This document shows, one piece after another, positions 2,362-7,046 of a DNA stretch of 7,046 bases. The translations under genes and the position numbers were made by a program. A model generated the notes under the pieces. The model worked only from the letters and a program-made list of their open reading frames with translations. It ran no database searches and was not told where the DNA came from. How positions within the stretch are numbered: the stretch's first letter is position 1; every line of letters begins with the position of its first letter. Source of the DNA: a virus (lineage: Duplodnaviria > Heunggongvirae > Uroviricota > Caudoviricetes); the IMG/VR virus record IMGVR_UViG_2609459803_000005. One strand, given 5' to 3'.

Positions 2362-2748
2362 TTATCTCCCTTTCGCTATATAGCAAAGATTAAACCCACC
2401 GGCGCCTGACATACGGGCTGTAAAACCCGTTCTTGAAGTACCAGTTGAGTTAACTCCATAAGCAGGCATGGTTGCTGGAGAAAGCAGAGACTCCTGGATA
2501 TCTGCCATTGTCAGTGTAATTGATTCGACCCGCGCGGGGAAAGGTAGCGGGAAAACAACATTCGTCCCTGTCTGTCCAACGGGGAAACCGAAAATACCCC
2601 ATTGTGTAATTACCCCATCCGGCCCCTTACTCCATCCAGATTTAGGAATCGGCCAGTCTGCTGCTCCAGAGTGCCCCGTTGTAAAACTACTCATATCTGG
2701 TACTTGCCCGGTATCCGTTCCGACGTTCCTCGTTGCCGCTTCTCCCAA
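2362..2748 (-). CDS. Alternative tail-fibre C-terminal variable segment (Sv'-like), silent in this orientation, expressed only after inversion
   Basis: Minus-strand ORF 2362..2793. Residues 15-18 (GLGE) are encoded by the inverted copy of the crossover repeat, so inversion would fuse the upstream fibre remnant (...ENLGLGE) in frame to this segment. The ORF's first ~14 codons lie outside the invertible segment and are probably not coding. Confidence 0.65.
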   Translation of the reverse strand: MGEAATRNVGTDTGQVPDMSSFTTGHSGAADWPIPKSGWSKGPDGVITQWGIFGFPVGQTGTNVVFPLPFPARVESITLTMADIQESLLSPATMPAYGVNSTGTSRTGFTARMSGAGGFNLCYIAKGR

Positions 2749-2765
2749 ACCAACGTTTATGAAAA
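2740..2765. repeat. Right crossover site of the invertible segment (inverted relative to the left site; internal dyad AAACC-AA-CGTTT)
   Basis: CTTCTCCCAAACCAA at 2739-2753 is the exact reverse complement of 874-888. It lies 55-80 bp upstream of the invertase start, the usual arrangement in Gin/Cin/Pin systems. Confidence 0.6.
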
Positions 2766-2819
2766 TGCAGAAATAACGATCAAATGGCATCATTCCTGCT
2801 TTTGTCAGGGAGATCTACC

Positions 2820-3374
2820 ATGCTTATTGGCTATGTACGTGTGTCAACAAATGACCAGAACACAGATCTACAACGTAATGCGCTGAACTGTGCAGGATGC
2901 GAGCTTATTTTTGAAGACAAGATAAGCGGTACAAAGTCCGAAAGGCCGGGACTGAAAAAACTGCTCAGGACATTATCGGCAGGTGACACTCTGGTCGTCT
3001 GGAAGCTGGATCGGCTGGGGCGTAGTATGCGGCATCTTGTCGTGCTGGTGGAGGAGTTGCGCGAACGAGGCATCAACTTTCGTAGTCTGACGGATTCAAT
3101 TGATACCAGCACACCAATGGGACGCTTTTTCTTTCATGTGATGGGTGCCCTGGCTGAAATGGAGCGTGAACTGATTGTTGAACGAACAAAAGTTGGACTG
3201 GAAGCTGCTCGCGCACAGGGACGAATTGGTGGACGTCGCCCCAAACTTACACCAGAACAATGGGAGCAGGCCGGACGATTAATTGCAGCAGGAATTCCTC
3301 GCCAGAAGGTAGCGATCATCTATGATATTGGTGTATCGACTTTGTATAAGAGGTTTCCAGCCAGGATTATATAA
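2820..3374 (+). CDS. Serine recombinase, DNA invertase of the Gin/Pin/Cin/Hin family
   Basis: N-terminus MLIGYVRVSTNDQNTDLQRNAL carries the catalytic-serine motif (YVRVST), followed by DRLGRS and a C-terminal HTH, in a protein of about 185 aa. GGGAGA Shine-Dalgarno 6 nt upstream of the ATG at 2820. The ORF-track start at 2784 is an in-frame upstream extension without a ribosome-binding site. Closely resembles e14 Pin as I remember it. Confidence 0.92.
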   Translation: MLIGYVRVSTNDQNTDLQRNALNCAGCELIFEDKISGTKSERPGLKKLLRTLSAGDTLVVWKLDRLGRSMRHLVVLVEELRERGINFRSLTDSIDTSTPMGRFFFHVMGALAEMERELIVERTKVGLEAARAQGRIGGRRPKLTPEQWEQAGRLIAAGIPRQKVAIIYDIGVSTLYKRFPARII

Positions 3375-3411
3375 AACCGCAGACACGCCGTATGCAAGAC
3401 GTGCTGCGGTT
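3375..3411 (+). terminator. Stem-loop immediately after the invertase stop codon (possible terminator or RNA-stability element; no U-tract)
   Basis: AACCGCAGACACG ... CGTG-CTGCGGTT forms a stem of about 12-13 bp with one bulge, starting 1 nt after the TAA. No T-run follows, so intrinsic termination is doubtful. Confidence 0.25.
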
Positions 3412-3570
3412 GGCTGATGCACTTTCGAGAGTGTATGTATTGAATTATTTCCAGCCGTTACTGATTTTACGTATTTTTTGTATGAGAGGAGTTGCACCAC
3501 CTCTTAAGCATAATTTGTTAGAATCATGGCAGCACAATAGCCATATATCCAATATAAAATACTTAACCTT

Positions 3571-4470
3571 CTAATCATTATGGAGTATTTGATCGCCGTA
3601 TGGCCAGCCATTTTCCCCAGGAAGGGTCATACCTAACATTGGCATAATACTAAGTTGTCCAATGGTAAATCCTAGAGCACTTGTATTACTGATTCCGGCA
3701 TAGGTCATATCAAGGGGGTTAGACTCTGAGCTGGACATAAAAAGATTTCTTGTGCCAATTCTATTCGCCATTGAGAACTGAATATGCCCACCAATTGTAT
3801 TTACGGTGTCCTGAGATATCCAGTTGTTTAACGCGATAAATGGCGCCCGCCACCAGTTAAGCGTGCCATTCTCAAAACGCCCCCTCGTCATCTCAATATC
3901 TTCCCGAAACTGCTGCTTTCTGTCTCCCAAGACTACCGGGGTACCTGTTGTCAGGTCAAGGCAGTCCTCAATTACAAGATTAGTGGGGTTTGATGGGGTG
4001 TTGTAGATCTTAATGATTTTATGTACCTGTGTTCTGAAACAGAATCCGTAAATAATCATCTCCGTTGCTACAGAACGGGGAAAAAACTGGCCAATATCCA
4101 GTATAAATTTTTCCGCGATTCCCTTTGTTAAAACTGCAATTTCATAAAGACTCGGGTAACTATCATAAGTCAACTCCGGCTGCTGAACATCATAATAATT
4201 AACTTCATGTAATGAAGATAATGATACGGCAAGTAACTCCTTCACATTTATACCGATCATTGTTCCTCCTGCAAAGCCGAAACCAAACTCCATAATTTTT
4301 TCCGGAGATAGACGGTATATGTCATTGGAGCGAATAACTGATACCGGAATCGAGAATAGTTTAGGACAGTGATTTGTCATTACACTTTCATGCTGGGTGA
4401 TTCTTGAGTCGCTTACGGCCCAGATACTTTCCCCTTCTTCCCTGTTTAGCCAGCAGGCTATTGCTGTCAT
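3571..4470 (-). CDS. Hypothetical protein, 299 aa, unknown function (possible Ntn-hydrolase/HslV-like N-terminal region, unverified)
   Basis: Long minus-strand ORF (track 3571..4608). I place the start at the ATG at 4470 because it has a strong AAGGGGG Shine-Dalgarno 6 nt upstream. This gives MTAIACWLNREEGESIWAVSDSRIT... I recognise no family with certainty. Confidence 0.7.
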   Translation of the reverse strand: MTAIACWLNREEGESIWAVSDSRITQHESVMTNHCPKLFSIPVSVIRSNDIYRLSPEKIMEFGFGFAGGTMIGINVKELLAVSLSSLHEVNYYDVQQPELTYDSYPSLYEIAVLTKGIAEKFILDIGQFFPRSVATEMIIYGFCFRTQVHKIIKIYNTPSNPTNLVIEDCLDLTTGTPVVLGDRKQQFREDIEMTRGRFENGTLNWWRAPFIALNNWISQDTVNTIGGHIQFSMANRIGTRNLFMSSSESNPLDMTYAGISNTSALGFTIGQLSIMPMLGMTLPGENGWPYGDQILHND

Positions 4471-4872
4471 TGAAAACCCCCTTTTAAGTAAAAAAATCAG
4501 ATTCAGATAGTGCATACATAATTTAGTCAAGTCATCTCTTTTAAGACGCATTGAGAAATGGTTGCTCAAGGTGCGCCAGTGAACGCGCACGAAAATAACT
4601 TCTTGCATTTCCCATTACACTCTGACTTTAGGGCCGCGTTAGATTTTAACATGGTGGCCGTGCATCCATTTAAATTGGTAATCTGGAGAATGAGTAACGC
4701 TGAATAGATTAACAATCTATGCGACTAACGGCCCTTAAAAGCGCAGCTCATAACATCGAATTTTACCAGTTTAGTCATTTTTAAAAAGTGCCCGAAAAAT
4801 GTTGTCCACGATTTGTGCTCTACGTCCCATCTTGACCTACTCCCTGATAATTCACTCAGAAGGCGGTTAGCA

Positions 4873-4900
4873 ATGTCCGTTAAGTGCTCACAACGGACAT
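4873..4900. promoter_or_regulatory. Perfect 9-bp inverted repeat (ATGTCCGTT-N10-AACGGACAT) inside the cargo-cassette spacer; candidate operator or RNA hairpin
   Basis: Directly visible dyad symmetry. It lies between the two cargo genes, inside the questionable 78-aa ORF. Confidence 0.3.
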
Positions 4901-4951
4901 TCAGCCCACTAAATCCGACCGTGTCGCTCAATATGCGGACAGGTTGTAGTG

Positions 4952-5554
4952 CTAACTGCATTGTAGCTGTGAGATTTCACCATCGATGGCTTCTATAACC
5001 TGTTTATAGCGGAGCATGACCTCATCATGAATCATCATTAATCCGCGGCCGTACTCTGTGGCTAGGATTGTGTATCTTTTCAGGTGTGCAAGATGTTCTT
5101 TGTTGCCAGTAATGTCACTTGCAACCTGCGTGGAGTCCAGCCGTTCGATAAGCGCATTATTGCCGCGATAGGAATCAATTAGGCTTCTTGCGCTTGTATA
5201 AAAAGCCACAATTTTTGAGAGTGTTTCTCTATGAACTTCAGGTAGGGATGCCGAGTTGGCTTCATAGAACGTGAAGTAGTTTTGAGTAATGGGGAAAATG
5301 TTATCGAACGGTGAGTTCCGGTCGTATTTTTCGATTTCTTCTGCCATTCTGGCCTGATACAGTTTAATCAGTGAGTCTATTTCCTCTCTGACACCCAATA
5401 GCGTTGTTATACGCTTCTCTCTGGCCGCTGTTGCCTGCTGTTTTGCCTGCTGTTTCACCTGAGTTGTCACTCCTATCATCGTGAAACAGCCACCTAAAAG
5501 AGCTGCTAAAAATGCGGAGATGAGATCTGAATATTCGTGCCAGAAGGTTAGCAT
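4952..5554 (-). CDS. Hypothetical membrane-anchored protein, 200 aa (one N-terminal hydrophobic helix, then a charged, probably helical domain)
   Basis: Minus-strand ORF whose N-terminus has a hydrophobic stretch (LISAFLAALLGGCFTMIGV), followed by a K/Q/E/R-rich segment. No convincing Shine-Dalgarno before the first ATG (5554). An alternative internal start at 5479 has an AGGTGG upstream but would remove part of the hydrophobic helix, so the start is uncertain. Confidence 0.65.
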   Translation of the reverse strand: MLTFWHEYSDLISAFLAALLGGCFTMIGVTTQVKQQAKQQATAAREKRITTLLGVREEIDSLIKLYQARMAEEIEKYDRNSPFDNIFPITQNYFTFYEANSASLPEVHRETLSKIVAFYTSARSLIDSYRGNNALIERLDSTQVASDITGNKEHLAHLKRYTILATEYGRGLMMIHDEVMLRYKQVIEAIDGEISQLQCS

Positions 5555-5565
5555 GGCGAAAATTC

Positions 5566-5588
5566 CATTGGGTTAAATTATGTCTATT
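5566..5588. promoter_or_regulatory. Perfect palindrome GGTTAAAT-N7-ATTTAACC 12 bp upstream of the first cargo gene; candidate operator overlapping a -10-like hexamer (CATAAT on the minus strand, 5572-5577)
   Basis: Exact 8-bp inverted repeat read from the sequence. AT-rich, so more likely a protein-binding site than a stable hairpin. Confidence 0.3.
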
Positions 5589-5888
5589 TAACCACATAAT
5601 GATACGAAGATACCTTCCAAAATGTTGCTATGACCCCATCTGTTGTTGCCTGGCTGGTGACGTGTCTGGGTATTAGCACCGTGCTCTCTCATTATCTAAG
5701 TCTGGGCCAATCCTCGTTCATAACAGGCATTCACTTCAGTCATGGCAGAAAGGTATGCATGCTGGAGAAGTCATGAAAGAAAAGAAGACTTCTGCCTCGT
5801 TTGTCATCACTGTTATCTTCTCATTGATTATGCAGGTCATAGTGGGGACACACAAAGCTTTGTACTATCCGATAGTGGTTAAGGTGGA

Positions 5889-7046
5889 TCACTCCACCTT
5901 TTCATCAAGCCAATCCGCCCACCACTGCATCATTTCTCTGCGCTTATCGAGATACTGAGCATGGTTGTAAATACCGCGCACAGATCCGCCGTTGGCATGT
6001 GCCAGTTGCACTTCAATAGCGTCAGCAGGCCATTCGTGCTCGTTCATAATCGTGCTGAATTCATGCCTGAATCCGTGACCGCTTTCCAGACCCTCATAGC
6101 CGATTTGTTTGATCACAAGTAGCACCGCGTTCTCGCAAATTGGCTTCTTCTTATCGTTGCGCCCGGAAAAAACAAACTCTGATACTGGTTTAGTGATTGA
6201 GCTTAGTGTAGTGAGAAGTTCAACCACCTGGTCTGACATCGGGACCACATGAATTTTGCGTCCCTTCATTACACTGGCGTCGATGGTGATAATCCTGTTT
6301 TCAAAATCGACGTTCTTCCATAGCATGGAGCGAAGCTCTTTCGTTCTTAGGGCTGTGTAGCGCAAAACTTTAGTCGCAATGAGCGATACGATACTTCCTG
6401 AAAATGTTGCCAGTGCTTTATTGAATGCCGGGATCTGGTCTGCAGGAAGAAACGGGAAGTTTTTCTTGCGGTATCCCTTCATGGCGTCAGCAAGGTCAGG
6501 TGCCGGGTTATATTTAGCCCTACCAGTGACAATAGCGTAACGGAAAACCTCGCCGCATCTTCTGCGGGCTTTATTTGCTCGCTCCATTGCACCGCGATCT
6601 TCAAATCTGCGGATTACTTCCAGCAGTTGCATCGGCTCAATCTCCTGAATTTCAAGGCCGCCGATGATAGGTAAAATGTCGTCATCAAACATTTTTGCAA
6701 GTTCAGTCGCATACCCTACTGACCATACTTGCTTCTTGTGCTCGTACCATTCCTTGTAAATCGCACTAAATGAATTGTTGTTAGACGAAGCCTTTTTCGC
6801 CTTTACCGGATCGATGCCAACCGAGATGTCTTTCCTCGCAGTCCATGCCTTATCCCTTGCTTCCTGCAAAGTCATAAGCGGATATTTTCCGACGGTCAGG
6901 ATTTTCTCCTTACCGTCAATCTTGTAGCGAAGCTGCCATACCTTTTTCCCGGATACAGGAACATAAAGGTACAGGCCATTACCATCGAGAAGGCGGTATG
7001 GTTTTTCTTTCGGCTTTGCTGCTTCAATCTGCTTAACGGTGAGCAT
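5889..7046 (-). CDS. intS: Tyrosine recombinase, P4-type prophage integrase (IntS-like, CPS-53/KpLE1 family)
   Basis: Complete 385-aa ORF. Tyrosine-recombinase catalytic residues are visible near the C-terminus (HGFRHEFST with H-x-x-R, and VRGIYNHAQY with the catalytic Tyr). The start codon is the last triplet of the window, so the expected tRNA attachment site lies outside it. Symbol inferred from the dsdC-proximal context and my memory of K-12 IntS. Confidence 0.88.
   Translation of the reverse strand: MLTVKQIEAAKPKEKPYRLLDGNGLYLYVPVSGKKVWQLRYKIDGKEKILTVGKYPLMTLQEARDKAWTARKDISVGIDPVKAKKASSNNNSFSAIYKEWYEHKKQVWSVGYATELAKMFDDDILPIIGGLEIQEIEPMQLLEVIRRFEDRGAMERANKARRRCGEVFRYAIVTGRAKYNPAPDLADAMKGYRKKNFPFLPADQIPAFNKALATFSGSIVSLIATKVLRYTALRTKELRSMLWKNVDFENRIITIDASVMKGRKIHVVPMSDQVVELLTTLSSITKPVSEFVFSGRNDKKKPICENAVLLVIKQIGYEGLESGHGFRHEFSTIMNEHEWPADAIEVQLAHANGGSVRGIYNHAQYLDKRREMMQWWADWLDEKVE

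Follow-up and report, generated by a model that had tools for sequence, protein, structure and literature searches.

Among characterized bacterial enzymes, HslV (ClpQ, MEROPS T1) comes closest in N-terminal architecture to the protein at the center of this analysis, and the β subunits of the 20S proteasome come closest to it in structure. The catalytic set of proteasomes comprises Asp/Glu17 and Lys33, with Gly47 at the oxyanion hole. To our knowledge, no known bacterial anti-phage system uses a threonine (proteasome-type) protease as its effector. Fuchs, Alva, and Lupas catalogued 22 uncharacterized proteasome homologs, and most of the bacterial homologs in that 2021 catalog have no known function (PMC8665760). 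PPH and AAH are phage-borne and their roles are unknown; RPC and DPH are restricted to Proteobacteria, and RPC has a C-terminal extension; PPH is ~140 aa long, and PPH and RPC were described as lacking helix H2 on the basis of 2021 tFold models (PMC8665760). A search of the literature returned no report linking any proteasome homolog to phage defense and nothing relevant beyond that catalog. The DNA analyzed here (the window) is a 7,046-nucleotide stretch from a virus of the Caudoviricetes (IMG/VR record IMGVR_UViG_2609459803_000005) and makes up an entire IMG/VR contig. It is an Escherichia coli argW/IntS (CPS-53-type) prophage remnant carrying two genes, here called A and B, between its integrase and its tail-fiber/invertase module (Table 1). 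As judged from its modeled fold, B very probably encodes a proteasome-β/HslV-type N-terminal-nucleophile (Ntn) threonine hydrolase, and A and B are probably independent cassettes.

The AlphaFold (AF2) model of B was built on the alignment from a search that returned 27 clusters (described below) and had a predicted local distance difference test score (pLDDT) of 80.5 and a predicted template modeling score (pTM) of 0.83. Residues 1–246 form the core, which adopts the αββα sandwich of the proteasome superfamily, and residues 247–299 form a low-confidence, family-specific C-terminal extension with a conserved G...GM motif. When the model was searched against the PDB with Foldseek, 345 matches were obtained at E ≤ 1e-3, and the 50 listed were all proteasome subunits; structural alignments to 20S proteasome β subunits, Anbu, and BPH had sequence identities of 6–17%. 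A preliminary description of this DNA had assigned neither protein to a nameable family. This agrees with searches of Pfam, NCBIfam, PHROGs, and PADLOC, which gave no family match for B and nothing meaningful for A, but B can be named by its fold.

The alignment of B relatives contains an invariant Met-Thr start, Asp21, Lys37, and a GFAGGT motif, an arrangement resembling HslV. Position 2, directly after the start codon, is Thr in 151 of 159 full-length representatives (95%) and Ser in 3 (2%). In the same set, D21 (99%), K37 (100%), and G68 (99%), the last within the GFAGGT motif, are conserved together with G142 (99%), C144 (96%), G182 (100%), P210 (97%), and G227/G228 (98/97%), and the spacing of 16 between D21 and K37 is the same as that between Asp17 and Lys33 in proteasomes. 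A catalytic triad of Thr2, Asp21, and Lys37 is proposed from these positions, with Gly68 as the likely oxyanion hole. Removal of an initiator Met that precedes Thr is the established specificity of methionine aminopeptidase, and B has no propeptide; loss of Met1 would leave Thr2 as a free N-terminal nucleophile, as in HslV. From the order of secondary-structure elements in the model, G182 (before helix H3) and G227-G228 (before the last strands) would occupy the positions of the proteasome Gly-Ser129-Gly and Ser169-Gly-Gly. Comparisons at the sequence level were uninformative by score. Alignment of the B family profile with E. coli HslV and the Thermoplasma acidophilum β subunit by hhalign, using manually entered reference sequences, was non-significant (probability ~1% or less); within these alignments, D21 fell on residue 17, K37 on Lys33, and GFAGGT on the GFAGGT of HslV. 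Sequence-profile searches of the PDB with alignments of 20 and 53 B sequences yielded no proteasome chain and only spurious helical-repeat matches, and a Pfam and PADLOC scan of 53 diverse relatives gave zero matches, so that neither B nor these relatives are placed in the superfamily by Pfam PF00227 or by PDB proteasome chains.

The ATG of B at 4470 is preceded by a strong Shine-Dalgarno sequence, AAAGGGGG. The mechanically called reading frame is longer (345 aa, from an ATG at 4608), and the 345-aa form also appears in some RefSeq annotations; it was ruled out because 95% of relatives start with Met-Thr at the 299-aa position. B has no hydrophobic helix by Kyte-Doolittle analysis, in line with its preliminary description as a soluble 299-aa protein. 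A word-indexed search of 5.8 billion proteins found 27 B clusters, all unnamed and drawn from Enterobacterales and Photobacterium, and a HMMER profile search of 1.84 billion representatives found 869 at E ≤ 1e-3. Most of the 869 are 270–300 aa long with full-length matches, and the full-length relatives reach down to 20% identity. Both A and B are real genes, A being kept across genera and B having distant full-length relatives and a confident fold.

B differs from the characterized enzymes in several respects. It has no detectable sequence homology to HslV and is ~120 residues longer, with its C-terminal extension; HslV is encoded at a housekeeping locus, whereas B resides on mobile elements and has no adjacent HslU-type AAA+ unfoldase. 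No AAA+ gene was found within the window or adjoining B in the argW and lambdoid contexts. In contrast to the 20S β subunits, Anbu, and BPH, no α subunits or ring partners are encoded near B. The homologs in PMC8665760 resemble it more closely, since B is likewise Group I-like, stand-alone, and without a propeptide, and its C-terminal extension recalls that of RPC. The B model nevertheless contains H1 (residues 70–84) and H2 (residues 108–129) in a 299-aa protein, which sets it apart from PPH and RPC as described. B may belong to, or sit beside, RPC (WP_140207863) or DPH, the comparison being with their descriptions only; the accessions listed for ten B-family clusters do not include the DPH representative WP_074989469.1. 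A functional analogy, and no more than that, can be drawn with Lit of the e14 prophage, where again one gene for a protease (a putative one in the case of B) fills a prophage cargo slot next to an invertase/tail-fiber module. Lit, which causes abortive infection through cleavage of EF-Tu, is a zinc metalloprotease (HExxH), whereas B lacks HExxH and has an unrelated fold.

The product of A has one strongly hydrophobic stretch, residues 11–29 (Kyte-Doolittle 19-residue mean 2.16), which bears out the single N-terminal hydrophobic helix of the preliminary description. Its AF2 model (pLDDT 74) is all-α, with a transmembrane helix that continues into a long helix (residues 2–71), a loop, and then three helices; the helical domain following residues 11–29 is probably cytoplasmic. 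The fold search returned generic helical bundles only (best E = 0.26), and no inference was drawn from them. Assignment of A as ZorB was rejected, as a weak PADLOC match (E 0.002) covers the transmembrane segment only and no ZorA lies nearby. The family is tiny, with 39 clusters even by profile, and the protein is 85–97% identical among E. coli, Kluyvera, Buttiauxella, Serratia, Dickeya, and Cronobacter. At the DNA level, a module of roughly 835 bp (window ~4886–5720) is 84–95% identical across genera in unrelated surroundings. More distant A relatives (30–42% identity) are found behind cI and an HSDR_N gene in a lambdoid prophage of Providencia and, in Pantoea, at the argW/yfdC locus. A leader of ~160 bp accompanies the gene and contains a perfect palindrome, GGTTAAAT-N7-ATTTAACC, at 5571–5593 on the minus strand (N7 being AGACATA in the window), 16 nt ahead of the A start codon and kept in all six genera; candidate roles for it are a translational hairpin and an operator bound by a dimeric regulator. 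In ~1300 matching E. coli genomes, homology of the intS flank ends at ~5714 in the 11 records listed.

The preliminary description had treated A and B as a two-gene module. The pair is not conserved together in other genomes, an outcome that the same description had set in advance as a refutation. Relatives of B are found apart from A in at least six contexts. In a lambdoid prophage of Serratia, the gene lies between recT and cI beside a RelA/SpoT gene that matches the PADLOC candidate PDC-S33, and in a Providencia P2-like prophage it is beside ogr and adjoins PDC-S59. Islands of Photobacterium (with HNH and Mrr-like nucleases) and Citrobacter (with CbtA/CbeA, beside a P4-like integrase/element) also contain it, as do two high-GC viral contigs, in one of which it follows a HigBA pair. 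In 37 E. coli genomes, a PFL_4703-type integrative and conjugative element (ICE) has a 306-aa paralog as the next gene downstream of its conjugative transfer ATPase. A, in turn, occurs without B in at least eight contexts. E. coli TL20 and an IMG/VR contig have a 447-aa HExxH protein after it, Serratia has HEPN_Toprim_N and a 323-aa protein, Cronobacter has DUF4238, and Kluyvera has an HNH-like 269-aa protein; no co-oriented gene lies downstream of it at the Dickeya locus, in a plasmid-like contig, or in a Cronobacter-like viral contig. The two were found together in one E. coli lineage of cassettes and apart in all other contexts examined. The pair is separated elsewhere and homology breaks at the boundary between the genes, and an obligate two-gene system is not supported.

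Within that lineage, a 2490-bp block containing both genes (3377–5866) is present in 7 of 5426 complete E. coli genomes. Copies in an argW prophage, on the IncI plasmid pSM107_MCR, and next to torT, at the end of a lambdoid prophage, agree at 99% identity. Just downstream of B at the lambdoid site is a gene for a 410-aa hypothetical protein (WP_104769331.1; L002 7505–8737, minus strand) that has no match in Pfam or PADLOC. pSM107_MCR is a 111-kb IncI-type mcr plasmid, and the block lies there (locus 65052–85518) with lambdoid tail genes (gpJ, lom, and tail fiber), adjoining the shufflon/PilV region; a prophage end appears to have been captured by this conjugative plasmid.

The spacer between A and B, estimated at ~480 bp in the preliminary description and now measured (Table 1), divides into two parts. 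The B-proximal part travels with B, and at loci that carry A alone DNA homology stops at 4833–4949. This part presumably holds the promoter and 5′ untranslated region of B, including its Shine-Dalgarno sequence; the spacer has no consensus σ70 promoter facing B, and the promoter is therefore inferred. A consensus scan for promoters and terminators found sites no more frequent than in shuffled sequence. A 78-aa open reading frame (ORF) at 4725–4961 was considered as a third gene and rejected, having no family match or homologs and no conserved small ORF as a counterpart upstream of other B genes. The spacer had also been called rich in dyad symmetries. The richness is weak, amounting to one perfect 10-bp palindrome (4872–4881/4892–4901) plus several weak dyads, with an RNA-folding z-score of −1.7, but the main dyad does matter, since it is contained in a conserved element that recurs.

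This two-hairpin boundary element occupies the A-proximal part of the spacer, and its tail (CATTGCTAAC...GGGAGTAGGTCA) extends to ~4830. At A-bearing loci, homology breaks at a common motif on both sides of A, with the consensus GTCCGCT-N-TGAGCGA-NN-AGCGGAC. Homology to loci with A and the HExxH protein ends at 4833, and homology to Kluyvera, Dickeya, and one E. coli locus ends at 4886, inside hairpin HP2. The window contains one copy of the motif at 4876–4898, inside the palindrome 4872–4901 just after A, and a degenerate copy at 5706–5728 upstream of A. A third copy lies beyond the variable partner gene at the Serratia, Cronobacter, Kluyvera, and E. coli PSS-04 loci, and the partners therefore look like separate cassettes. 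In the full element, two hairpins ~20 nt apart have an identical 7-bp stem, and their loops (TGGCAC and TGAGCGA) are conserved; the consensus is GTCCGCTCCTGGCACGAAGCGGAC, ~20 nt, then GGTCCGCTGTGAGCGAnnAGCGGAC, often followed by the tail CATTGCTAAC...GGGAGCAGGTCA. A strict 21-mer with 18 fixed bases was found in at least 120 IMG/VR contigs, against a rough chance expectation of a few. The element is 90% intergenic, and 43% of loci carry two to four copies, 0.5–4 kb apart and in either orientation. It is present in 2109 of 5426 complete E. coli genomes (39%), at 1–5 places in each, and was unannotated in all 30 hits shown. An Rfam search of the window and seven element-bearing loci returned no family over the spacer or the element. 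The stems do not covary (86.9% of cells pair, versus 86.2% in shuffles); an RNA role was set aside as unsupported, and the element thus behaves as a DNA dyad site rather than as an RNA. No report of it was found in the literature under its motif. A recombination site, a homology patch, and an insulator are candidate explanations of its nature.

These observations bear on how A and B relate to each other. One alternative is that they form a single two-component defense system, in which membrane-anchored A senses infection or is the target site and B is the protease effector or activator. The genes are co-oriented, A lies directly upstream of B in all 7 complete E. coli genomes with this B allele, and the 99% identity of the block in three settings means that it has moved as a unit within E. 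coli. These facts weigh against independence of the cassettes, and A and B might cooperate in the lineage that carries both. The relatives of B in at least six contexts and of A in at least eight have no such partner, however, the spacer carries a boundary element where homology breaks, and its length is far above the gene spacing of typical defense operons, so that a single two-component system is considered very unlikely. The conservation of A in six genera, upstream of a co-oriented gene that varies and is usually nuclease- or protease-like, would suit a different arrangement in which a constant A protein acts as sensor or adaptor for effectors that can be swapped downstream of it (Ntn protease, HExxH protease, HEPN-Toprim, DUF4238, or HNH). 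This is also unlikely, given that A lacks a co-oriented partner in Dickeya, the Cronobacter-like viral contig, and the plasmid-like contig, that the spacers between A and its partners are 200–480 bp and carry the boundary element, with a third copy behind the partner, and that the B and DUF4238 families are widespread without A.

Independent cassettes remain the preferred reading, and their surroundings include many defense-related genes. The preliminary description had called the interval accessory moron cargo in a variable slot, and related prophages indeed hold other cargo at argW: a PD-T4-6-like kinase (E 9e-24) or a weakly Lit-like HExxH protein, and K-12 CPS-53 has gtrABS in the same position (as yfdGHI), as that description had stated. 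The HExxH protein (447 aa, motif HEIAHHILEH) occupies the B slot of sister prophages and has no Pfam match; it matches Lit and PD-Lambda-2_B weakly and around HExxH only (E ~6e-4), and is an uncharacterized candidate protease cassette. Neighbors of A and B relatives include the PADLOC candidates PDC-S33, PDC-S59, and PDC-S37/Hhe and an Mrr-like nuclease. In viral contigs, genes flanking the boundary element gave strong matches to LmuB, BovA, PifA, HEC-06, TIR-NLR, a DRT reverse transcriptase, CBASS cyclases, ThsB, PtuA, and Tmn, and to GmrSD, HEPN, and TIR domains. Prophage copies of B occupy lysogeny-type cargo slots rather than lytic modules.

From these features, a model can be proposed in which the interval consists of two single-gene accessory cassettes in a variable cargo slot, joined by the two-hairpin boundary element. 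B would be a threonine protease that needs no partner and works to the advantage of its mobile element, with its C-terminal tail probably controlling assembly or access to the active site. It could block a superinfecting phage either through proteolysis of a phage protein or, in a Lit-like form of abortive infection, by cutting an essential host protein when infection has been sensed. A would be an N-terminally anchored helical inner-membrane protein, encoded by an autonomous mobile module with its own leader, and would provide a separate exclusion or defense function at the membrane. Taken whole, the statement that the interval holds two independent single-gene cassettes, of which B is a threonine protease likely directed against phages and A a membrane exclusion or defense protein, is accepted here with a slight lean in its favor. 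Its parts fare differently: an anti-phage role for B is plausible by location yet falls a little short of even chances, and an exclusion or defense role for A is a guess, and more doubtful than the role given to B.

Several observations weigh against this proposal. A match of B to the proteasome family, by Pfam model or PDB chain, is undetectable at the sequence level, and the active-site assignment therefore rests on the fold and conserved positions. Subunits of the proteasome type usually have to assemble before they are active. B has no counterpart in PADLOC 2023 (PADLOC-DB 2.0), and the functional claim derives from genomic position. The flanks of the boundary element yielded 316 matched families versus 185 for control ORFs at least 3 kb away on the same contigs (mostly weak regulator-type matches plus one type I restriction-modification system), but this comparison counts families rather than proteins and is a rough one, not a controlled enrichment. 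The paralog in the ICE transfer region is equally compatible with defense and with a general mobile-element function. That paralog, along with the spread of the B family over prophages, ICEs, islands, and a plasmid and the existence of the phage-borne PPH and AAH (PMC8665760), would be expected if B served its element outside defense, in counter-defense, in the processing or turnover of an element-encoded or host regulator, or in establishment after transfer, with A as an unrelated lysogenic-conversion membrane protein. This alternative is judged rather unlikely because prophage B genes are found in lysogeny-type slots beside defense candidates. A search of A and B by tblastn against 50,697 deposited phage genomes gave no match, and the absence of B from that collection counts against this alternative and against the anti-phage proposal alike. 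B is predicted to be hydrolytic, probably toward proteins rather than other amides; it is highly unlikely that B keeps the Ntn fold without being a protease and acts instead as a ligase or transpeptidase like connectase, or as an amidase on a small-molecule, cell-wall, or lipid substrate.

B is best described as a probable stand-alone proteasome-type hydrolase carried as mobile-element cargo in defense hotspots. It is compact and propeptide-free, with an essentially invariant putative triad, and is found in prophage slots that elsewhere hold validated defense genes; a defense role, if true, would give this branch of the proteasome superfamily its first biological role. A bolder and doubtful extension is that the B family (~870 unannotated clusters) represents a new single-gene anti-phage class with a proteasome-type threonine protease as effector, and that the two-hairpin element is a DNA exchange site (a recombination target or portable homology patch) for defense cassettes among enterobacterial prophages and islands, integron-like in its effect but with no recognizable integron integrase. 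The element could serve as a sequence tag for finding new defense cassettes and may explain how they are shuffled.

Table 1. Coordinates of features in the window and of related features at other loci (L numbers)
Feature	Position	Strand	Description or basis
Truncated dsdC	1 to ~383		Left end of window
Invertible tail-fiber/assembly segment	869–2758		
Pin-type serine invertase	2784–3374	+	Pfam Resolvase and HTH_7
Gene B	3571–4470	−	299 aa, soluble
Spacer between A and B	4471–4951		481 bp
B-proximal spacer part	4471–4829	−	Travels with B; DNA homology of A-only loci stops at 4833–4949
Two-hairpin boundary element	4830–4940	−	HP1-like 4917–4940; HP2 4872–4901, perfect 10-bp arms
Gene A	4952–5554	−	200 aa, N-terminal transmembrane helix
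A-module leader	5555–5728	−	Cross-genus alignment of upstream regions and motif scan
intS	5889–7046	−	P4-type tyrosine integrase of argW prophage; Pfam Phage_integrase, Phage_int_M, Arm-DNA-bind_3
ICE paralog of B	L154 5332–6252		E. coli 2012C-4502 example
447-aa HExxH protein	L020 1488–2831; E. coli TL20 (L004) 4296–5633		Behind same A module and boundary element
Motif copies elsewhere	L012 5861/6657/8334; L015 5827/6654/8045; L018 5826/6657/7666; L005 6539/5991/4675; also L034–L153		

Both genes were confirmed as minus-strand ORFs at the coordinates given in the preliminary description, and their placement between an integrase and a tail-fiber/invertase module agreed with the identification of intS and Pin by Pfam. 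The part of the window from 2739 to 7046 is 99.98% identical to strain NADC1036, where the annotation of the counterpart reads pinE, hypothetical, hypothetical, intS, and tRNA-Arg; the RefSeq name of the integrase is "prophage integrase IntS", and it adjoins the tRNA-Arg gene. GC content is 0.38–0.46 over the A/B cassette versus 0.48–0.53 in the pin and intS flanks, a drop that counts as support for a foreign origin of the cassette.

The segment between the dsdC region and pin is flipped relative to NADC1036 (99.7% identity), with both flanks collinear, and 20-bp overlaps at 869–888 and 2739–2758 contain the crossover sites. The window thus shows a host-range segment, invertible by Pin, in the orientation opposite to that of NADC1036. 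At the left end, the window opens with the 5′ part of dsdC, which encodes a LysR-type regulator and joins the C-terminal region of a tail-fiber gene near 383–519, a junction shared by no complete E. coli genome. Because dsdC is fused directly to the tail-fiber region, the prophage has lost the greater part of its DNA by deletion; what is left is a ~6.6-kb remnant that consists of the tail-fiber switch, pin, B, A, and intS. At the other end, an ORF of 67 aa (5755–5958, plus strand) runs antisense to the 3′ end of intS and has a hydrophobic N-terminal half (MKEKKTSASFVITVIFSLIMQVIVG...). The segment is ~90% conserved in roughly 1300 E. coli genomes and carries no annotation in the NADC1036 RefSeq record; the ORF could encode a small membrane or toxic peptide, or could have arisen by chance. 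In addition, a sub-threshold Rfam match to IS009 at 1963–2152 on the minus strand (47 bits versus a gathering score of 117, E 1e-8) falls where two convergent tail-fiber assembly genes overlap.

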